Source: Candidatus Poribacteria bacterium | Lineage (GTDB): Bacteria > Poribacteria > WGA-4E > WGA-3G | Assembly: GCA_965198235.1 (NCBI GenBank) | Contig: OZ240248.1 | Location: 2,624,001 to 2,688,000 of the forward strand | DNA length: 64,000 nt | Direction of reading: 5' to 3' | Shown here: positions 1-34,399 of the stretch, piece after piece | Position numbering within the stretch: the first letter of the stretch is position 1 | How the letters are laid out: each line of letters opens with the position of its first letter | Notes under the pieces: model-generated | Database searches by the model: none | Seen by the model: the letters and a program-made list of their open reading frames with translations, nothing else | Told to the model about the DNA's origin: nothing | Position numbers and translations under genes: made by a program

Positions 1-1263
1 GCACCCCCCACCGAGGAAGCACCTGCTGAAACTCCTGAGGAACCAGCCGCAGAAGAACCAATGCCAGAACCCGTCGTAGAAGGTCCTGGTTTTGATATGA
101 CCCTTGAACCCGGTTTAAACATGATTTCTATTCCGCTGATGCCGGTAGAACCTTACACAGCGAAATCGTTGGCAGAAATGCTGAACGCGACAGCTATTAT
201 TCAACTCGAGGCGGCGACACAGCGTTTTGTCGCTTACACGGTTGCTGATGAAGGTGATGGCTTTGGCGTTACGGGGGACAAAGGTTATATCGTGAATACT
301 CCTGCTGGAGGCATGGTAAAGTTCACAGGTGATGCGTGGGACAACCAGCCTGAACCGGAACCGATGCCAGATGAACCTGTTGCTGAGGATGCACCCGCTG
401 AAGATGCACCCGCTGATGACGCAGTTGCCGAAGATGCTCCTGCTGACGACGCACCCGTTGATGACGCAGTTGCCGAAGATGCTCCTGCTGACGACGCAGC
501 TGTTGAAGATGCAGCCGCTGAGGATGCTCCTGCCGATGACGCAGCCGCTGATGCCGATGGAGACGACGCTGCTGGAGATGACGCAGCTGCTGATGCCGCA
601 CCCGCTGATGCCGGTGGAGATGCCGCACCCGCCGCACCCGCACTCTCAACCTATGACAGCGCATGGGCGTTCATCGTTACCAGTGACATCCATGGCATGG
701 AAACAGGCACAGGGTATATCCTCGTCGCTGAGAACCTCCGCGCTGGTACTATCGCTACCGAGAACATCACAAGCACTGCGAAACGTTCCTCTGCTGTCTG
801 GGCAGACCTGAACCGCAAGAGCGTCGTTGAAGCAGGCGATAAACTCGAAATTGCCCTTTACGACGACCGCGGTAGAATCGTGTCAGGTCCGTTCCAACGC
901 ACGGTTACGACATCTGACATTCGCAATGCGTTCCTGAGTCTGCAGCTGAATGTTGGAGATGTGCAGCCGCAAGACACGCTTTTGGCGCAGAACTTCCCGA
1001 ATCCGTTCAATCCAGAAACATGGATTCCGTATCAGTTGAGCAAAGCGACAGAAGTCAAGATTGATATTTATGATGTATCGGGTCACTTAGTTCGTTCGTT
1101 GGATTTGGGTTGGCAGCCGTTAGGTTCGTATATGATGCCGTCGAGTGCTGCTTACTGGGATGGTAAGAACGCAGTAGGTGAGCGTGTAGCGAGTGGTATT
1201 TACTTCTATACGCTACAGACATCAGATTTTACCGCAACCCGACGGATGGTTATCCTCAAGTAG
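1..1263 (+). CDS. C-terminal part of a large secreted protein with an acidic Ala/Asp/Glu/Pro linker and a FlgD-Ig/T9SS-type C-terminal domain (5' end outside window)
   Basis: Frame is open from base 1 (APPTEEAPAE...). Ends LAQNFPNPFNPETWIPYQL...YWDGKN..GERVASGIYFYTL...RRMVILK. Confidence 0.85.
   Translation, partial: APPTEEAPAETPEEPAAEEPMPEPVVEGPGFDMTLEPGLNMISIPLMPVEPYTAKSLAEMLNATAIIQLEAATQRFVAYTVADEGDGFGVTGDKGYIVNTPAGGMVKFTGDAWDNQPEPEPMPDEPVAEDAPAEDAPADDAVAEDAPADDAPVDDAVAEDAPADDAAVEDAAAEDAPADDAAADADGDDAAGDDAAADAAPADAGGDAAPAAPALSTYDSAWAFIVTSDIHGMETGTGYILVAENLRAGTIATENITSTAKRSSAVWADLNRKSVVEAGDKLEIALYDDRGRIVSGPFQRTVTTSDIRNAFLSLQLNVGDVQPQDTLLAQNFPNPFNPETWIPYQLSKATEVKIDIYDVSGHLVRSLDLGWQPLGSYMMPSSAAYWDGKNAVGERVASGIYFYTLQTSDFTATRRMVILK
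380..630 (+). repeat. Coding tandem repeats (AEDAPADDA-type acidic low-complexity linker)
   Basis: Degenerate 15/30-nt units such as gctgaagatgcaccc and gttgccgaagatgctcctgctgacgacgca. Confidence 0.85.
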
Positions 1264-11363: not shown

Positions 11364-11402
11364 TGTATATCTCCTTTGTATAGAGTTTAGCATATTTTTT
11401 AT

Positions 11403-11533
11403 TATAGTGAAATCCAAAAATATGTTTACACTTGTAGCATAGGAAACCGTTGGTCTCCTGTGCCAGCGTGAGCCGCAACTTCATAGTTCGCACTACGATA
11501 CGAGTGTCCAAAGTAATTACGGAATCTACTATA
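11403..11533. mobile_element. MITE family B copy 2
   Basis: tatagtgaaatccaaaaatatgtttacacttgtag ... gtgtccaaagtaattacggaatctactata. Confidence 0.75.
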
Positions 11534-11591
11534 ATGTCAAATTCTTTGCGCGGCTTGATGTGGGCATTTGGTTTCCTCACTCTTTCTCCGC

Positions 11592-11978
11592 TCCATTCCT
11601 TGTATTACATTTCCATTCCTTGTATTACATTGCAAAAACCCCAAGCAAAAACACCGCACCGAGCATGGTTGGGACATTACCGAATTGAATTGTTAATCTT
11701 CATGCAACCGCCCCAGTGTTTATCTGAATCGCGGATTATCGCAGATGACGCAGATTTCGCGGATTTTAAGAGTTTGTCGCGTTGTGATTTTTGAGTCCTG
11801 TAGGGGTCGGATGTTTAGAATCTCGGTTCTTTGATGGCGGGGTTTCGCTGTTTGTAGTAGGGCAATTTATTGTCCGTCCGTTGGATCTATAGATATCTGA
11901 TGCCTCTCCGCTGCTGACGAGATTTGAAACCTTGCCGATTCCCCAGGCCCGGTAGGTGCGGTTTCCCAACCGCACCGA
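11592..11978. repeat. Intergenic repeat mosaic: 20-bp tandem duplication, G/T micro-element, 9-10-mer tandem, several GTAG REPs
   Basis: tccattccttgtattacatt x2 (11592-11631); ccccaagcaaaaacacc (about 11639-11655); (cgcrgat) units 11729-11765; gtagtagggcaatttattgtcc at about 11855; gtaggtgcggtttcccaaccgcaccg at about 11952-11977. Confidence 0.7.
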
Positions 11979-12045
11979 ATATCATTAGAACCTTAGTGGG
12001 ACTCGCGACTTTCCTTGATTGTTTAGGTTAAATGTGCTACTATTT

Positions 12046-12201
12046 TAACCCAAGTTGCTACTCACAAATTTTGGACATTTCAACAAGGTTTTCAGGCACT
12101 TTCCCACCCCGTAGGGGTGATATGTCTATAGAAAATCGTGTTGTCAAAACACTGCACTCCAGCGGAGTGCTATGTCTATAAAAAAGGGGCAACTTGCGTT
12201 A
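12046..12201. mobile_element. MITE family C copy 1 (TIR TAACCCAAGTTGC) carrying a CTCCAGCGGAG hairpin doublet
   Basis: taacccaagttgc ... gcaacttgcgtta, with tatttta repeated at both junctions. Confidence 0.72.
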
Positions 12202-12379
12202 TTTTAATAAGCAATGATATGTTTAATCGCTCCAAAATCCATTTTGAGGACAAGTAGAGGAATATAGGAGGAACATAGCAGCTTTTCAACACGCTATTAA
12301 TAACTATACTGAAACTATCAAATTCTTGAAAAATGCCCTCTAACATAGCGGAAGGAAGGACTGATAAGTTAGCACGACT

Positions 12380-13409
12380 ATGACTGTTATTGATGAGAAA
12401 TACCTTAACAAGCTCAGTAAATTTCCTAGTGGCTGTGCATTTCGTGGACAAGTTAAAAGCAAATGGCTGTTACATTCTGGGGCTACCCGTCGCCTGATTA
12501 AGTATTATTCTGAAGATGTTACGCAAAATCCTAGTTTCTCGCAGATTTACGTGAACTATCATAGTGCTGTGCTTATAAACCCTGCCCATACGAACGGATT
12601 TGACATTGATGATGGCCATCAAGTTTCTGACCTGCAACTTCTGGCAAAACTACAACACTTTGAGGCAGCAACGGGGTTACTTGACTTTACATGGAACCCT
12701 TTAGTTGCATTATGGTTTGCATGTAAAGATAATGATAATTGTGACGGAAAGGTTTTTGTTGCTGATTTGAGAAATCCGATAACGTTTCAACAAGTCTCTA
12801 ATGAAACGGAAAAACAAAGCGTTGAAGCAATCTTTTTGCCCAATAGTGATGTCGGCAAACTACTATACTGGGAAGCAAAGATTCATGGCGAAGCTGCCGC
12901 AAGAATTTTGCGACAACGTAGTGTGTTCGTCATTGATCGCCCGTTGATTCTCGAAGATGTCGTAGATTACATAGAAATTAAGGCATCGGACAAAGCCTTG
13001 ATCAGAAAAGAACTTGAAGATATATTTGATATTAGCGCGTGGACTCTATTTATGGATATACACGGTTTTTCGCTACGTAGTGTTTTTAGGGCGTTTCAAC
13101 GAAGCCTTTCGGTGTTATAACAAAGCAATAAGAGCAGAAAATGACAATGCAGGGGTTGCTAACAACCATGGAGGAACAGCACAAATCCTCAATATGATTG
13201 ATGGCGCAGAATACAAAAGTCATTTTGCGCAGGATAAACCTCCTTCTGCTGTGTATGTACAGGTTGCTAGAGACAATTTGTCAGAGAGAATCTTTGTTTT
13301 CACTGGCAACAAGGGAAACACAGGGAACTTTGGCTATATTTCGTCCGGAGGTCAAGGATTTGATGGTGGGAACCCCTTTCTTATCAAAGTAAGCAGTCAG
13401 CAAGGTTAA
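12380..13409 (+). pseudogene. FRG domain protein with out-of-frame TPR/C-terminal remnant
   Basis: AFRGQ, LQHF..ATGLLDFTWNPLVALWFAC, RILRQRSVF in 12380-13120; TPR-like GRFNEAFRCYNKAI in another frame (13014-13409); AT-rich. Confidence 0.7.
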
Positions 13410-13606
13410 TTCAGAAGTGAATTTGGAAAGTGAAGTGGAAAAATCTGACTATCGGAGAATGCGACAAAAGGGTGTGGTTTGGGTAAGATATTAAGTTAAA
13501 TCCAATTTATCATTACGTGTTTCACGGAGAAAGGATATATTGAATCTCAGAAACCCGCGTACCATCTGACCTGAAAAAATCCTCCGTGAACCCTCCGTGA
13601 ATTGTC

Positions 13607-16600
13607 CTATAATAGTGGCAAATTTTTGACAATCTCCACCGTTTTCAGACTCACCGTGATAACACGTCCAATCAAATCCACAATATACTGCGGCTGATCC
13701 GCACGGTTCGGGTCATTCACGATCCCACTCCGTTTGTCTACTTTGACGCGATACTGATCCACCACCCATTCCACCGCAGAACGCGTGCCTAACCGATACT
13801 CATACACCTCCGCAGGGATACCATCCAGCGTCAGGAAGTCGTTGTATTTCAACTGCGTTTTGTCTTTGGAGAGTTTCATCTTTTCGACACGCCAATCTAT
13901 CGGTATACCGGGAGTTTCAATATATTTCAGTTCATCGTCCTTCGGAGCGGATTCATAGTTGACGTGGATATCTGCTAACTGTGCACCTGCAGTGGCGAAC
14001 CCCCAGAAATCTTCAGCGAAGGGGATATGCGGTAGGTCGCGCTTGAGATTCGCCTGATACTTTTCGCGATACTCGGGATGGTGTAAGAGCGCGTAGGTAT
14101 AGTGGAAGATGTCCCATTTGGTGATAGCATCGTCTCCGTAGTGATTTTGAAACGCCGCTAATGCCCAATCGGTGATATTCTCTTGTCGATTTGTGCCATC
14201 CTCATCGTAGGTGTAAAAGGGAAAGGATTGTTGTGGGTCGCCATAGAGATTCACATCGGGAATACATTGGCTCATCAACACGGCAAACTCTTTCCGACCA
14301 TAGCCTCCGACGCAAATTACTTGGTTCTCCGACTCTGTTACTGATCTTGGAAAGATTGAAGGAAACACATGGACATCATTGTTTATTGTCCGATCAAAAT
14401 AAAGATTTAATTTAGTAAATGGGCGATAGAGAGATGTCTTCACCTTGCGTTCCGCATATTCAACAATTACCCCTCGTTTTAACTTTACCTTTAGGTCCCG
14501 ACTCCAACTAACTTTCGTGTCATCATAAGCGACAAAATCATCAACGTTGATTTCCCTCTGATTTTCCTGCCGTTTCCACCTATCTACCTCTGTGTTGTAG
14601 GTTTCACTCATGCGCAGAATGTTCTCAGTAAGGACCTTTCGATTAAAGTTGTAAGCCCAGGCATCACGATTGGTTTTTACACCGTTGCTGTAGGTCTTGA
14701 AAATCACATCTGCTGCTATGCCTTTTATTCCCTTTGCTTCCTTAGTTCCCATCGGAGTAAAAGTGTCAAACTCAGCATGAAGTCCGTCGGTGAGCCACGT
14801 ATGTCGCGCGTCAGGTTGAATCGTCTGCCACACAATATTATCTGTATCTTGGGATTCGTTCAAAAAATCGAATTTCTGTCTCTTGTTCCACTTTTCATCA
14901 GTACGATAGTAAAAGATTTGGGAGGAGTTTGATGATTTTCTTCCCTTTTTCACAAAAAAATTAATGCTCACGCCGACCCGAATTCTGAATACGTTCGCGT
15001 CAGAAACTTTCAATCCCTTCCGTGCGTTCCCGCCTAAATCAAGAATGTAAATCGCGTCAAAATCGTTCATGAGATGTTTCCGCATCCCGTCAAATGCCAG
15101 ACCATCAAGAAAACTATTGTTGGTCACAAAGGCAACAACTCCTTCGGTCCCAATCCGTTTTGATGCCCAAAGAATTGCCTTTACATACGGATCTGAGAGT
15201 GCGTTTTTATTGGTCGCTTTTGAGGCTTGCGAATACGTTTCCTGCACGAGCGTGTCCATCATCTCGTACTTCCGATTCTTGTTGTTGTCATTTTGGTTAA
15301 CTTGTTTCGCGTTGTAGGGCGGATTGCCGATAACGACAAACATATCCGTCGCCTTCTGCTTTTTCACACGTTCTGTGTTTTCCTGCGTGAAGAGTTCTAT
15401 TTGTCGGTCCTCCAGCAGCTCAAACGTGTCCGCAAGTGCGATCCCGTCAAACGGCAGATACGTCCCCGTCCGTTGAAAATACTCCTGCTCGATGTTAAGA
15501 CTTGCGATGTAGTAGGGCAATAACAGAATCTCGTTGCAATGCAGCTCGTGACGGTATTTCTCTTCAAATGTTGTCGCTTGGATGTCCTGCATGAGCCGGA
15601 CGATGAAGTTGCCGGTGCCGACGAACGGATCAATGATATGAACGCCGATATCCGACAGCGACCGGTCGAACTCGGTTTCCAAAATCTGTTCAACACTGTT
15701 CACCATGAAATCAACGATCGGCTGCGGGGTGTAGACGATGCCGTGAGTGTCCGCCACCTTAACGGAAAATCCCTGAAAAAACTGCTCGTAGACGGTATTG
15801 AGAAATTGCTGTTTTTGGGAGAAGTCTTTGCAGAGCAAAGCTGCTTGTTCAATGGCGAGATAGAACGGGTCCAGTTCTCTGAGGAACGCGTCGCGACTAT
15901 ACGTCTGTCCGATAAGCACTTCAATGACCTTTTCAATTTCGCGTGCGATGATATTTCGGCGGGTGAAATCCGGATTATTGAAAACAGTACGAAAGATGCG
16001 TTCGGTGAGCAGGTGTTGGATGAGCATCTCCTCAACAGCAGTTTTAGAGAGGTTCGGATTGATTGCGGCGCGGCACTGTTGATAAAAATCTGTGAAAACG
16101 GTGACAAATTGTGGGTTCGTCTCGTGTTGTTCCGCTATGAGTTCTGCGGCTTTTCTACCGAGGGTGGGAACCTTCTCTTTAAATTCGGCGACGGCAGCGT
16201 GCCAGTTTGTGAGCGCAGCGGGTGGCACGGCGAAAAGGTGTTGGAGTGCCGTAATCAGGCGTGTTGGATCGGTAATGTCTACGTCAAAAACCTGCTCCCC
16301 GTTTTGATAGAGAATGCCGTGCTGTGGATTTTGGAAAAAAATGTTATCAAGCGGATAACCCGCTTCACGTTTCTCCTGCACGGCTTTGTAGAGGTTATCG
16401 TCTATATCTTTCGCTTCCCAGTAGGCGAACGGGAGTCCGTATGTGTCGAGTATCACGCCGTCGAGAACGATACGGTTGCCCGATGGCGCGCGCATCGCGA
16501 ATTGTGGAATCAGGGTAGCATCCACCTGTTTTGCACAGACGGTAAGCAGCGTTTCAAAAGGGGAACTGACAGCACCTTCGTGTGTGATGTCGTGCCTATT

Positions 16601-16669
16601 ATATTGCTGCAGCGTGGCGTAGTAGTCTCGGACTGCTTTGTGGCTGGGTTTGAGATTGAGTTGTGGCAT
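13607..16669 (-). CDS. Single-chain restriction-modification enzyme (N6-adenine MTase, N-terminal PD-(D/E)XK nuclease, type ISP-like specificity domain, no helicase)
   Basis: LDG...WEAK nuclease motif; GIVYTP, DPFVGTGNF (motif I), GNPPY (motif IV); C-terminal YRPF, YALLHHPEYR, EWVVDQY. Confidence 0.85.
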   Translation of the reverse strand: MPQLNLKPSHKAVRDYYATLQQYNRHDITHEGAVSSPFETLLTVCAKQVDATLIPQFAMRAPSGNRIVLDGVILDTYGLPFAYWEAKDIDDNLYKAVQEKREAGYPLDNIFFQNPQHGILYQNGEQVFDVDITDPTRLITALQHLFAVPPAALTNWHAAVAEFKEKVPTLGRKAAELIAEQHETNPQFVTVFTDFYQQCRAAINPNLSKTAVEEMLIQHLLTERIFRTVFNNPDFTRRNIIAREIEKVIEVLIGQTYSRDAFLRELDPFYLAIEQAALLCKDFSQKQQFLNTVYEQFFQGFSVKVADTHGIVYTPQPIVDFMVNSVEQILETEFDRSLSDIGVHIIDPFVGTGNFIVRLMQDIQATTFEEKYRHELHCNEILLLPYYIASLNIEQEYFQRTGTYLPFDGIALADTFELLEDRQIELFTQENTERVKKQKATDMFVVIGNPPYNAKQVNQNDNNKNRKYEMMDTLVQETYSQASKATNKNALSDPYVKAILWASKRIGTEGVVAFVTNNSFLDGLAFDGMRKHLMNDFDAIYILDLGGNARKGLKVSDANVFRIRVGVSINFFVKKGRKSSNSSQIFYYRTDEKWNKRQKFDFLNESQDTDNIVWQTIQPDARHTWLTDGLHAEFDTFTPMGTKEAKGIKGIAADVIFKTYSNGVKTNRDAWAYNFNRKVLTENILRMSETYNTEVDRWKRQENQREINVDDFVAYDDTKVSWSRDLKVKLKRGVIVEYAERKVKTSLYRPFTKLNLYFDRTINNDVHVFPSIFPRSVTESENQVICVGGYGRKEFAVLMSQCIPDVNLYGDPQQSFPFYTYDEDGTNRQENITDWALAAFQNHYGDDAITKWDIFHYTYALLHHPEYREKYQANLKRDLPHIPFAEDFWGFATAGAQLADIHVNYESAPKDDELKYIETPGIPIDWRVEKMKLSKDKTQLKYNDFLTLDGIPAEVYEYRLGTRSAVEWVVDQYRVKVDKRSGIVNDPNRADQPQYIVDLIGRVITVSLKTVEIVKNLPLL

Positions 16670-16713
16670 GGGGTATCGTAGCAGGTTTTTGCGATAGGTT
16701 CAGAAGCGAACGT

Positions 16714-16971
16714 TTAGGTCAACAGGGCAATAAGAGCTATAATTGCGGCTCCAACGGCAGTACATACAGTCAGGACAGTTAACACTTTATTGCTGCCTTC
16801 TTGCTTACTTTCCAGTTTTCTCTTTATCCATCCCACATCGCGTTCCAAAACCCCTACGCGAGTGTCCAGAGAATCAAGACGTTTTTCCAAACGGGCATTG
16901 TTTTCTCTCGCTTGTGTCTCGATCCGTGACAAAGTTTCGAGAACCCTTTCCCGGAAATCTTGATTAGCCAT
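16714..16971 (-). CDS. Small coiled-coil protein with C-terminal transmembrane helix
   Basis: MANQDFRERVLETLSRIE...RLDSLDTRVGVLERDV...VLTVCTAVGAAIIALIALLT; AGGAG Shine-Dalgarno upstream. Confidence 0.7.
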   Translation of the reverse strand: MANQDFRERVLETLSRIETQARENNARLEKRLDSLDTRVGVLERDVGWIKRKLESKQEGSNKVLTVLTVCTAVGAAIIALIALLT

Positions 16972-17175
16972 TTTGATATCTCCTGTGTTCTGTGTGATGT
17001 CTTTTACCAAAGTATACCACAAATATAGGCCGAAATCAACAAAAAAGGAGGCAGAGTTTCCTCGCAAAATCCGAATGATTTTTGTCACACCTCTTTCTAC
17101 GAAATATGATATAATGCATTCAATAAAGCAATGTGTCCAAGTCTTGCCAATCAAAAAAGTGGAAAGGAATTCAAT

Positions 17176-18661: not shown

Positions 18662-18914
18662 GCCTTAACCGCGAGGTAAATTAAGGGATCAGACGAAATT
18701 AGTCCTAAGTGCGTAGCTTGAAACGAAGTGGAAAGCGGGTTTGTGGGAAGGAACGTCAAATCCACAACCGCTGTGCCTTAACCGCAAGGTAAATTAGAGA
18801 ATCAGATGAAATTAGCCGTAAGTGCGTAGCTTGAAACGAAGTGGAAAGCGGGTCTACGGGAAGGAACATCAAATCCCCAGTTCGCCTGACCGAACCGCAA
18901 GGTAAATTAAAAAA
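18662..18914 (+). repeat. 113-bp tandem repeat (about 2.2 copies) filling the intergenic space up to ATG 18915
   Basis: aaccgc(g/a)aggtaaatta at 18667, 18780 and 18893; units share taagtgcgtagcttgaaacgaagtggaaagcgggt. Confidence 0.88.
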
Positions 18915-27124: not shown

Positions 27125-27239
27125 TAGTGAAACCCGAAAATAAGTGAACACTTGTAGGGGAAACCGGTCTTGGGTTCTCCTGCCCAAAACACTCGCTAAC
27201 CTGGTCCTCCGTGTCCAAATAATTGTGGGCTTTACTATA
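27123..27239. mobile_element. MITE family B copy 3
   Basis: tatagtgaaacccgaaaataagtgaacacttgtag ... gtgtccaaataattgtgggctttactata. Confidence 0.75.
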
Positions 27240-31221: not shown

Positions 31222-31431
31222 GAAGGACAAAATTGCTGAATAATCGTAGAGATCAGGAATGTGAGTCACGCTTTCTTTAAGCCGCTCGCAATTCTTAGGA
31301 AACACCGCAACTTCACTGAAAACCTGCCCGAAATGAAATTATGCCTTAAATGGCATAATTTGTCTTTGCTTTACATTTGGAGGGGTTTTTGCTTGGGTGT
31401 TTCTTTAACCCAGGAGCGAATAGTTTAAAAA

Positions 31432-32319: not shown

Positions 32320-32444
32320 TAGAGGCAGCTCTTGTGGCTGCCCAGAGATGTTAGACTTTTCATATCCTTCTAACTGATAACCGACAGCTATTCTTACAGA
32401 TAGCCGACGGCTGATTGCTGACGGCTAATAAAGGAGGCATTTGC

Positions 32445-33641
32445 ATGCGTCAAATTGGATCAACCCCTGTTACTGCACCCGGTTGGACTGCGAAATCGAA
32501 AGACGGGATCGCTATCGTCGATTGTGATGTTCACCACAATTTCCGGCACCCTACGCAATTGTTGCCTTACTTGTCAAAATTCTATCAGGAGCATCTCCTC
32601 GATCAAGGGCTACATCTCGGCGGGTATCCGAATATCCCAATTCGTAGCAATCGCGTGGACCTCAAGGGGAGGGTCGAAGAAGCCATCGAATCGACACCCA
32701 AGAACTCCGGCGGCGACCCCAGAGATTTTAACTTCACATTAGAGTTCCTCCAAGACGAGCATCTTGATGTTTGGAATATTGATGTCGCCGTGCTTACGGG
32801 ACCGCCCCCGTTCTACGGGTATTCTGGACTCCCTGATCCCGATTGGGCGGCTGCGCTCTGCCGCGCCTTTAACGATTGGACAATTGAACATTGGCTTGAT
32901 CGCGACGAACGCGTCGTCAATGCCATTCTCGTCTCTCCGTCCGACCCACCCCAAGCCGTAGAAGAGATTAACAGACTCGCACACCGGAAAGACACTGTCG
33001 CTGTTATGGTTCCGATGGGAACAAGTCGTCCCTTTGGCAACCGCTTCTATCATCCTATATGGGAAGCGTGTGAGGCGCACGGATTGCCTGTCGTATCGCA
33101 CATTGGTGGTGGCGGCGGGGCGACCCGGAACACACCAACCCCTGTCGGGCATCCCACCTACTACATGGAATCCCGAATGAGTCGCCCTTATGTTGCTAGT
33201 TCACACGCGACATCTCTGATCTGCGAAGGGGTCTTTGAAAAGTTTCCCAATCTCAAGTTCGCGCTCATTGAAGTACAACAGATGTGGGCGGTGCCGGTGA
33301 TGTGGCATCTCGATACCGATTGGAAAGCACTACGCGACCAGACCCCGTGGCTTAAACGCCTGCCGAGTGAGTACTTCCGTGAACACATACGGATCGGGTC
33401 ACAGCCGATGCACGAGCCTGAAAAACCGGAACAGATGTACCAGATGTTAGAAATGATCCACGCAGATGAAACGTTGATATTCTGCTCAGATTTCCCGCAT
33501 TTCGATTGGAACGATCCGGTGACGGTTTTCCCCAAGCTCCCGGAAGACTTACACTGTCGTATCTTCGCCCAAAACGCCCTCGATATCCTTCGATTGGATT
33601 TGGAAAAAGCCAACGGATCCGCGAATCCAGTAGCAAATTAA
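32445..33641 (+). CDS. Amidohydrolase 2 family protein
   Basis: VDCDVHH, AFNDW, YHPIWEAC, GVFEKFPNLK, FCSDFPHFD. Confidence 0.88.
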   Translation: MRQIGSTPVTAPGWTAKSKDGIAIVDCDVHHNFRHPTQLLPYLSKFYQEHLLDQGLHLGGYPNIPIRSNRVDLKGRVEEAIESTPKNSGGDPRDFNFTLEFLQDEHLDVWNIDVAVLTGPPPFYGYSGLPDPDWAAALCRAFNDWTIEHWLDRDERVVNAILVSPSDPPQAVEEINRLAHRKDTVAVMVPMGTSRPFGNRFYHPIWEACEAHGLPVVSHIGGGGGATRNTPTPVGHPTYYMESRMSRPYVASSHATSLICEGVFEKFPNLKFALIEVQQMWAVPVMWHLDTDWKALRDQTPWLKRLPSEYFREHIRIGSQPMHEPEKPEQMYQMLEMIHADETLIFCSDFPHFDWNDPVTVFPKLPEDLHCRIFAQNALDILRLDLEKANGSANPVAN

Positions 33642-33779
33642 CCGGAAACCTGTTTTTTTAAGCTATGGGCACTATGACTGCTCTCCACTTCGTTACGAGC
33701 AGGTTCTTAGTAAAATTCGTGTTCGTTTCTAAAAAGGAATACAGGATACATCAAAACCCAAGCCTGCAACACCGGCGCA

Positions 33780-33958
33780 GGGTTTTTGCTTGGGGTGTTT
33801 TTGCTTGGGGTTTTTGATAGGGCGTTTCTGCGGATTTCTGCGTATTGATAGGGGTTTTTGCTTGGGGTGTTTTTGCTTGGGTATTTCTGCGTATTGATAG
33901 GGTGTTTCTGCGGATTTCTGCGGATTTCTGCGGATTTCTTTTTCCTCAATTTCTTCAA
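33780..33958 (+). repeat. G/T-rich nested array of the 22-25 bp micro-element
   Basis: About 7 heads (gtttttgcttggg, gtttttgataggg, gtattgataggg) and about 8 tails (tttctgcgga, tttctgc, tttcctcaa, tttcttcaa). Confidence 0.85.
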
Positions 33959-34021
33959 CTCGAACACGGAAAACGTTAAAGTCTTAAATCGCGTTACTTA
34001 TCCGCAAGGGAAAATTAAAAT

Positions 34022-34399
34022 ATGGCACGTGTTGTCGTCGGAAAAGTATCGGAGATTCCACCGGGGAAACGCAAGATCATCGTGCCGTTCCGTGGCAAGG
34101 TAGGCATCGGGGTCTTTAACGTTGACGGCACCTTTTACGCTGTCCGTAACATCTGTCCGCACAAGCGCGGACCCCTATGTACAGGTGAACTCACTGGCAG
34201 ATTCGCCGCCGATGCACCGCCTTCAATTCAGGGCGTAATGCTCTCTGTTGACGGTTTGGGCGAGGTGCTACGCTGTCCGTGGCATCAGTGGACATTTGAT
34301 ATTGCTACCGGACAGTGTCTCGTCGATGAGACGTTACGTGTAGCGACTTATCCCGTCAAAATTGACGGTGATGATGTTGTCGTCGAATACGATGGCTAA
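34022..34399 (+). CDS. Rieske [2Fe-2S] ferredoxin (NirD-like)
   Basis: NICPHKRGPL and RCPWHQWTFD. Confidence 0.9.
   Translation: MARVVVGKVSEIPPGKRKIIVPFRGKVGIGVFNVDGTFYAVRNICPHKRGPLCTGELTGRFAADAPPSIQGVMLSVDGLGEVLRCPWHQWTFDIATGQCLVDETLRVATYPVKIDGDDVVVEYDG

Follow-up and report, generated by a model that had tools for sequence, protein, structure and literature searches.

A probable five-level nest of a 25-nt self-inserting repeat in an intergenic spacer of Candidatus Poribacteria

Anatomy of the array

The stretch of 64,000 nt of Candidatus Poribacteria DNA analysed here, referred to as the window, carries in the spacer between an Amidohydro_2 gene and a gene for a Rieske [2Fe-2S] protein an array of short G/T-rich heads, GTTTTTG(CTT/ATA)GGG, and TTTC-type tails (Table 1). 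The array is 176 nt long, from 33782 to 33957, where a sequence-only reading of the window had placed it at 33780-33958, and it begins at the 3' end of a host hairpin, itself part of a repeated intergenic cassette that reaches the Rieske start codon at 34022. Five heads, starting at 33782, 33797, 33810, 33854 and 33869, two GTATTGATAGGG pseudo-heads and eight to nine tails follow one another as H H H T T h H H T h T T T T(T), where H is the head as given above, h a pseudo-head and T a tail of any type; in full, with h for TTGATAGGG, T for TTTCTGCGGA and T' for TTTCTGCGTA, the array reads H-GT-H-H-CG-T-T'-h-H-GT-H-TA-T'-h-TG-T-T-T, then TTTCTT TTTCCTCAA TTTCTTCA. This agrees with the sequence-only reading, which had described heads and tails in a non-tandem order, with every GTTTTTG head right after GG(G/T); each head in the array is preceded by GG, GGG or GGGGT.

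Both parts are strongly enriched: the 13-mer head, with at most one mismatch, occurs nine times in the window against 0.14 expected (0 of 100 shuffles gave nine), and the tail TTTCTGCGGA occurs four times, always within the array, against 0.16 expected. The array is not a plain tandem, since Tandem Repeats Finder recovers only fragments of it, with a period of 15 at 61% matches and a perfect 10-nt repeat of 3.5 copies at 33905-33939.

The array was parsed by repeatedly removing the innermost complete unit and leaving two placeholder bases in each place. Six removals reduce it fully, each removed unit being exactly 25 nt, GTTTTTG-MTW-GGG-NN-TTTC-TGCG(G/T)A, and the residue consists of the hairpin, GTTTTTGCTTGGG-nn-TTTCTT-TTTCCTCAA-TTTCTTCA and host sequence. 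The array thus parses as one outer element and six nested units, seven elements up to five deep, with four of the nested units at GGG^NN^TTTC and two within a head at GT^TT^TTG; two nucleotides are replaced by each, at GGG^YR^TTTC or GT^TT^TTG. The parse also explains the 'GT' linkers and the 'GTATTG' pseudo-heads, because both are halves of heads split by insertion, and the start of a pseudo-head, previously misread, is the last three bases (GTA) of the inserted unit. We consider it probable that the array is a five-level nest of a very small, non-autonomous mobile repeat that inserts into itself.

The borders of the array were recovered in contigs of independent public runs, namely X1 record 5 (33682-33808, 0 differences), X1 record 7 (33905-34109, 2 differences) and X8 record 26 (33916-34100, 0 differences); some of the public-run contigs come from RNA libraries, and their presence there does not show transcription. 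Contig joints were also seen inside the array (33794>33866, 33822>33872 and 33822>33894), and these were not used as evidence of intermediate alleles because their shorter sides, of 22-23 nt, may stem from other copies. A terminator scan gave no signal (2 sites against 0.9 expected) and the RNA fold of the array is unremarkable (z -1.0).

Table 1. Coordinates of the array, its nested elements and related features of the window.
Feature	Position	Strand	Evidence or remark
Amidohydro_2 gene, upstream flank	32415..33641	+	PF04909, E 5.3e-30
Host hairpin CCTGCAACACCGGCGCAGG	33763..33781	+ (stem reported on minus strand by one scan)	3' end GG is the insertion point
E1, outer element (whole array)	33782..33957	+	head GTTTTTGCTTGGG 33782-33794; compound tail TTTCTT-TTTCCTCAA-TTTCTTCA 33935-33957; replaces 'CG' of the empty site
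E2, in the GGG^YR^TTTC site of E1	33795..33934	+	split head GT 33795-33796 and TTGATAGGG 33845-33853; tail TTTCTGCGGA 33925-33934; parse and split-head pairing statistic
E3, in the head of E2 at GT^TT^TTG	33797..33844	+	head 33797-33809; tail TTTCTGCGTA 33835-33844; parse
E4, intact 25-nt unit GTTTTTGATAGGG-CG-TTTCTGCGGA within E3	33810..33834	+	parse; tail position concordant with motif scan
E5, in the GGG^YR^TTTC site of E2	33854..33924	+	head 33854-33866; tail 33915-33924; parse and motif scans
E6, within E5	33867..33914	+	split head GT 33867-33868 and TTGATAGGG 33894-33902; middle TG unfilled; tail 33905-33914; parse
E7, intact 25-nt unit GTTTTTGCTTGGG-TA-TTTCTGCGTA in the head of E6, deepest level (5)	33869..33893	+	parse
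Rieske [2Fe-2S] protein gene, downstream flank	34022..34399	+	PF00355, E 1.5e-15
Single element copy GTTTTTGCTTGGG-TG-TTTC-TTTA	31385..31407	+	motif scan; orthologous G018 site empty, GGAGGG-CAG-CCCAGGAG
Head with long variant (GTTTTTGC plus AATGTAATACAAGGAATGGA repeats)	11592..11652	-	sequence scans

Insertion rules from filled and empty sites

In the studied genome (G000; 5.17 Mb, contigs C1 and C2) the unit has the 5' end GTTTTTG(C/A)T(T/A)GGG, followed by a variable YR dinucleotide, TTTC and a short 3' tail, and it measures ~23 nt in host sites and 25 nt, with the tail TGCG(G/T)A, when nested. Single copies sit directly 3' of R-G-(G/T) with an exact 5' junction, ...G(G/T)^GTTTTTG, and a ragged 3' end (TTTC, 2-5 pyrimidines and usually A). 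Of 111 single copies, 107 have G at position -2; position -1 holds T in 70 and G in 39 of them, and the middle dinucleotide is TG in 83, CG in 18 and TA in 7. The two ends, GTTTTTG... and ...TTTC(Y)nA, do not form inverted repeats, and no structure is predicted for the 25-mer on either strand (minimum free energy, MFE, 0 kcal/mol).

The array locus was compared with its orthologous spacers, 29 in all, in other congeneric species. The site is empty in L003, L005 and L012, which have the same spacer architecture and read GCGCAGG-CGA/CGG-CTCGAACACGG at this point; the general form of the empty site is GCGCAGG-CG-ACTCGAAC, found in related species and in one contig (X7, 356 nt) in which 33781 is joined to 33958 with 'CG' between. 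This contig is assigned to a related strain because its flanks differ at 4 of 96 and 19 of 258 bases. A second copy of the host cassette in the same spacer is empty in L004 and L006 (GGAGGG-CGGATATAAG) and filled in L002, L007 and L021 (GGAGGG-[GTTTTTGCTTG(G/A)GT(G/A)TTTCTT]-CAGA(T/G)ATAAG), and with the single copy at 31385 three loci show both filled and empty orthologous states. Within G000, one host repeat resembling a MITE (a miniature transposable element with inverted repeats) is represented by 8 empty copies (GAGT-T-GATGG), 1 single-filled copy and 8 with two or more elements, and empty paralogous sites were found for 61 of the 111 single copies. The orthologous spacers of five syntenic genomes were mostly too rearranged for a site-by-site comparison. 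No target-site duplication was observed at the filled and empty sites compared; one to three target bases (CG, TT, CA or T), about 2, are missing at filled sites, and each insertion adds a net +21 nt to a host site or +23 nt to a nested one.

The host cassette is itself a repeat of ~100-115 nt that occurs at 33745-34021 and 18662-18911 of the window and at many other intergenic sites. A hairpin (e.g. GCCTGCAACAACGGCGCAGGC or CCCGTAATGAAATGGAGGG) comes first, followed by ~60 nt and by CCGCAAGG(T/A)AANTTAAAAAT; the cassette's 14-mers occur 60-99 times in G000, and it supplies the 5' leader of many genes, since it ends directly at start codons. In G014 the cassette is tandemly multiplied to seven copies upstream of the gene at window position 27223.

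Nesting throughout the genome

G000 contains 98 arrays with two or more heads, from which 164 units were peeled, 131 of them of 25 nt, 19 of 27 nt and 7 of 28 nt; 118 lay at GGG^YR^TTTC and 46 at GT^TT^TTG. Complete reduction was obtained for 60 of the 98 arrays, the seven-head array included, against 7.0 expected when internal tokens are shuffled. GGGT precedes 34 of the 46 units that close on ...GTA^TTG and 12 of the 118 at the other site (Fisher 2.7e-15), and this pairing is the signature of split heads. The two head types (CTT and ATA) are mixed at 38 of 76 direct head-head junctions, a mixture that simple duplication would not produce, and loci whose flanks are unrelated share identical composites (a 58-nt composite at three loci, a 54-nt composite at two), the flanks being similar at background level. 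Insertion of the unit into its own internal target, as the sequence-only reading had proposed, is upheld by the six-step parse, the 60 reducible arrays and the empty alleles. It has to be amended in that there are two internal sites in the same orientation, not one, that ~2 nt are replaced per insertion, and that part of the excess of tails looks like slippage.

A long variant of the element, with 10 copies (loci) in G000, carries a 47-nt hairpin-forming cargo between GTTTTTGC and GG, with ends, tails and targets unchanged. The stem of the cargo, GGATTTAGTCT...AGACTAAATCC, is perfect over 11 bp; internal duplications of 20 nt are sometimes present as well, and a version of ~250 nt is found in the orthologous spacer of another species (L013). 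Shared composites and the long variant together indicate that the ends define what is copied and that the interior is free. No long element with the ends of the unit was found in G000; heads without tails run into other small repeats, and such long repeats as the genome has belong to a few insertion sequence (IS) families with other ends.

Several observations weigh against the reading as a self-inserting element. The strict grammar does not fully reduce 38 of the 98 arrays, and exact equality of heads and tails, the balance foreseen for nested arrays, is not significantly enriched (36 of 117 arrays against 29.4 on permutation); enrichment is confined to near-balance, with head and tail numbers at most one apart in 102 arrays, where the permutation mean is 73.6 and the maximum 86. 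Surplus tails are frequent (19 arrays with one head and two tails, 13 with two heads and three tails), and the outer tail of the array studied here contains two surplus tail-like 9-nt units outside the nesting rule. The dependence of nesting on copy number between genomes is weak: nested junctions increase with a log-log slope of only 1.2-1.3, compared with about 2 predicted for self-insertion, and significance is lost once G000 is left out. At the array locus the empty alleles that had been anticipated exist, but no stepwise intermediate allele is present among the 29 orthologous spacers, and no read or contig of the public runs searched extends across the whole array. The 3' end depends on context, being TGCGGA before TTTC, TGCGTA before TTG and host-specific elsewhere, and inserts in the head site nearly always have the middle TA (29 of 39 unfilled). 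Because of this dependence and the TA bias, many of the 'events' may be copies of one or a few ancestral composites, or gene conversion between similar contexts, and not independent insertions.

Part of this is what local expansion would produce, that is, one arrival of the element, by whatever means, followed by growth in place as its short internal repeats (heads of 13-15 nt, tails of 10 nt and head+tail units of 21 nt) slipped during replication or recombined unequally. Such growth would account for the perfect 10-nt tandem at 33905-33939, for the TTTCYTCAA 9-nt repeats at the 3' end of the array, for the frequent arrays with one extra tail, for a head/tail balance that does not exceed permutation, and for a slope near the 1 expected of slippage. 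As the origin of the arrays we nevertheless find it unlikely: it does not predict mixed head types at half of the direct junctions, identical composites at unrelated loci, or 'GT' linkers that pair over long range with 'GTA-TTG' junctions across complete units. The excess of arrays with a nested grammar argues against it as well, although a plain H^n T^n block would pass that test too.

Spread driven by homology, without dedicated machinery, was also considered. Empty paralogous sites would be converted from filled copies, through gene conversion or template switching that relies on a few identical bases to the left (G-G/T) and on the context shared to the right, and the repeat would also hitch-hike on the amplification of its host repeats. 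Junctions are indeed alike within a host family and different between families, the end of the tail varies with the nesting site, six identical double-filled copies lie in one MITE-like host family, and the intergenic spacers are mosaics of many repeats. We regard this account as quite improbable, since the element occurs in at least eight unrelated host contexts, 50 of the 111 single copies have no empty paralogue, the flanks of identical composites are only background-similar, and recombination would have a very short flanking identity, of 2-4 nt, to work with. We conclude that the nesting by insertion is real, and that the arrays also owe part of their shape to slippage, notably of tails, and to passive spread with host repeats.

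Distribution of the element

The search of the genome for the head that the sequence-only reading had suggested was productive: the 13-mer occurs exactly 256 times in G000, matches to head-NN-TTTC number 234, and the head sequence makes up the commonest 14-mer(s) of the genome. The element is present in 35 of 37 sampled genomes of the genus (24 of 24 in the first sample) at 0-234 copies, with G000 the highest and the closed genomes G052 and G074 at zero. Outside the genus it is all but missing: 5 of 31 genomes of the sister genus have 1-3 copies, and 1 of 47 genomes from the order's three remaining families contains it. Among the matches listed in a scan of a sequence collection, 75 of 80 belong to Poribacteria and the remaining five are single matches elsewhere. 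The element is specific to one genus of Candidatus Poribacteria, which are sponge symbionts.

The arrays are mostly intergenic, with 69 of 241 inside open reading frames (ORFs) of at least 150 codons, though such ORFs cover 86.7% of the genome. No clear strand bias was observed (134 arrays on the plus and 107 on the minus strand), and a test by replichore is weak because the GC skew shows no clear origin or terminus.

Search for machinery

In keeping with the sequence-only reading, which saw no enzyme in the window, a scan of 17 window ORFs gave no transposase, integrase or reverse transcriptase (RT) domain. No co-distributed RT or HUH-type gene, of the kind that reading had suggested looking for, emerged in the genomes checked. 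RVT_1 was not found in G000 or in the high-copy closed genomes G014, G018, G024, G068 and G006, and it occurs in 36 of 61 genomes of the genus, including the element-free G074. The distribution of the element does not follow that of the HUH (Y1) genes. Six Y1_Tnp genes occur in G000, three encoding proteins like the transposases associated with repetitive extragenic palindromes (REP-associated tyrosine transposases, RAYT), with REP hairpins of their own, and three encoding TnpA of the IS200/IS605 type, and their presence is little informative because 57 of the genus's 61 genomes have the family. The element-free G052 contains a RAYT with 82% identity to one of G000; the unit does not flank RAYT genes, and the RAYT loci are flanked by other hairpins.

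The genome also contains at least 14 copies of resident TnpB-type elements of the IS200/IS605 family (e.g. C1 239745-240997, 4602744-4604125 and 58845-60305), whose left end follows TTATC and which end in GGGTCTATCAC, the right end being ...GCCCAAGTCTTTAGGCTTGGGTCTATCAC. The micro-element lies inside two of these copies. The right end of the resident IS matches the unit at 14 of 18 bases, a score reached by 63 of 5000 shuffles and not significant after eight comparisons.

A route in which a RAYT or an IS200/IS605 TnpA moves the unit in single-stranded form, in the manner of REP sequences and their hairpin-forming doublets (REPINs) or of palindrome-associated elements, would find its enzymes in the Y1_Tnp genes just described, and the missing target duplication, as in IS200/IS605, the many copies in or beside REP-like hairpins and the 14-base match would all be in its favour. 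We consider this route very improbable given a 25-mer that is unstructured on both strands, a resident IS that targets TTATC and not R-G-(G/T), a RAYT so similar in a genome free of the element, and no clear preference for either strand. Telomerase-like addition by an RT encoded elsewhere, in which a 3' end ...GGG would be extended on a short RNA template and then re-primed, had been offered as an alternative. A G/T-rich head that starts after GGG and ends in GGG would suit it, as would an exact 5' and a ragged 3' junction, but we give it next to no weight, because RVT_1 is not found in the six high-copy genomes, yet is found in an element-free one, and re-priming cannot interleave heads and tails or split heads.

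Comparison with known systems

To our knowledge the only mobile elements of ~25 nt to have been described are the small dispersed repeats (SDRs) of Nostoc, dating from 2008, and we know of no explanation of the SDR mechanism. The repeats SDR1-8, of 21-27 nt, were reportedly described by Elhai and colleagues in that year from Nostoc punctiforme and relatives, and reportedly they also lie within one another. The Poribacteria unit shares with them the size class (nested units are mostly 25 nt and single copies amount to a net +21 nt), highly dispersed and near-identical copies, a precise short target, and sites that exist both filled and empty. It differs in its host phylum, G000 having no Photo_RC domain and the highly iterated palindrome HIP1 only 137 times, as well as in targeting R-G-(G/T), in replacing ~2 nt and in carrying its own targets. 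SDR5 of Nostoc is reported to insert precisely in HIP1, between nt 3 and 4 (PMC4390886), and citing papers report no SDR-like repeat in HIP1-enriched cyanobacteria outside Nostocaceae. The Poribacteria host is not a cyanobacterium and falls outside the Nostocaceae range of SDR1-8, and the unit was compared with the SDRs by description only. The analogy drawn in the sequence-only reading is apt, and we would class the unit as an element of the SDR kind, its closest known analogue, in a new phylum. Among the papers listed by full-text searches naming Poribacteria, judged by titles and abstract openings, we found no description of repeats of this kind.

Other classes of short repeat are more distant. 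REP, REPIN and bacterial interspersed mosaic elements (BIMEs) with their RAYT are likewise short, intergenic, high-copy, clade-specific and arranged in mosaic clusters, and RAYT genes and REP hairpins do occur in G000; the unit, by contrast, is not palindromic, has no GTAG or CGTC tag and neither flanks nor co-occurs with RAYT. Membership of the REP/REPIN-RAYT class was rejected on the missing hairpin, the other hairpins at RAYT loci and the RAYT in G052. The IS200/IS605 family shares asymmetric ends and insertion beside a fixed short motif without target duplication, but the unit has no subterminal hairpins, is 25 nt and not >100 nt long, and replaces target bases, whereas the resident IS uses TTATC; a miniature IS200/IS605 derivative was rejected on the hairpins and on the target. 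The pneumococcal BOX elements, boxA-(boxB)n-boxC, are modular, intergenic and variable in the number of internal modules, as are the arrays of the unit. Their modules are 45-60 nt long and stand in series, not nested, unlike those of the Poribacteria unit, and we know of no empty and filled 25-nt steps in BOX elements.

A clustered regularly interspaced short palindromic repeat (CRISPR) array was rejected because units abut or nest without spacers, and a MITE because there are no terminal inverted repeats and no target duplication and ~2 nt are replaced. Integron- or serine-recombinase-type exchange was dropped because a duplicated core dinucleotide is not present, and selected oligomers of the DNA-uptake or Chi-like type because copies differ from empty sites by indels of 21-25 nt. 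A slippage tandem or minisatellite was rejected on the 61% fragments from Tandem Repeats Finder, the mixed head types and the split heads, a slippage component in the tails being possible.

Proposed mechanism and implications

For the self-inserting element we propose the following. A copy would be inserted directly 3' of R-G-(G/T), without target duplication and with ~2 target nucleotides replaced. The unit carries two targets of its own, GT^TT at the start of the head and GGG^YR in the middle, and new copies would for this reason land inside old ones. Composites would keep intact outer ends and could be recopied as units; copies may in addition spread passively with the surrounding intergenic repeats, and tails may sometimes be multiplied locally by slippage. 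We infer that insertion is active and supplied in trans. The copies could be inserted by an undescribed enzyme with fixed recognition of the 5' end, or by microhomology-primed copy-in from another copy, in which a G(G/T) end would prime on that copy and be resolved by a few identical bases downstream. Both models alike suit a 5' junction that is exact, a 3' junction that is ragged and a 3' end that depends on context. It is conceivable, although we lean against it, that the unit represents an undescribed, oligonucleotide-scale form of DNA movement, in which 23-25 nt without hairpin, inverted ends or RT are inserted 3' of G-(G/T) with removal of two target bases by either of these agents.

A length of ~25 nt puts a mobile element at the smallest size considered capable of movement. 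The Poribacteria unit shows SDR-like behaviour in an unrelated, uncultivated phylum and with clear rules, namely defined ends, a defined target, two-base replacement and two self-targets. Since copy numbers range from 0 to 234 within one genus of many closed genomes, a comparative search by phylogenetic profiling for the responsible gene or process is possible. The results also show the intergenic DNA of Poribacteria to be a fast-turning mosaic of very small insertions, which bears on assembly, binning and annotation. If the spread is due to hitch-hiking and slippage only, the element is an ordinary, though well-documented, repeat family.

Other repeats and genomic features

A second very small insert, of ~40 nt (TTATGCCTTAAATGGCATAATTTGTCTTTGCTTTACAT), occupies the loop of a cassette hairpin at window ~31335-31380, and the orthologous site in G018 lacks it. 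Counts of its 14-mers in G000 are about 77-82, and it implies that more than one micro-insertion family is active. Spacers between conserved genes are almost wholly different between species of the genus (orthologous spacers L001-L030 and syntenic regions L157-L176), the orthologous spacer between Amidohydro_2 and Rieske varying in length between 35 and 478 nt. Such spacers are mosaics in which REP-like hairpins and MITE-like units are combined with insertions inside other insertions, hairpin loops (e.g. GGTGCGGTTT^GTAACCGCACC) being frequent targets.

A 5.7-kb island at window 11398-17078 is absent from five syntenic relatives and encodes a Type ISP restriction-modification enzyme of 1020 aa (PF18135, E 5.7e-101) and an FRG-domain protein. 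Contig C2 (43.9 kb) is almost wholly a second copy, in three collinear blocks, of the 40-kb segment C1:775767-815774, and may represent an integrated element in excised or circular form, or else a duplicate made in assembly; a plasmid search with this contig gave no match. Outside the window, at C1:~2733885-2735000, there is a CRISPR-like array in which one 22-mer recurs 23 times at a spacing of 50-95 nt and whose repeat contains CTTGAAACGAAAAGCATCTCG, different from the unit. Finally, a coding tandem repeat at window 379-641, with periods of 45 nt and 15 nt, encodes an acidic protein segment rich in Ala, Asp and Pro.

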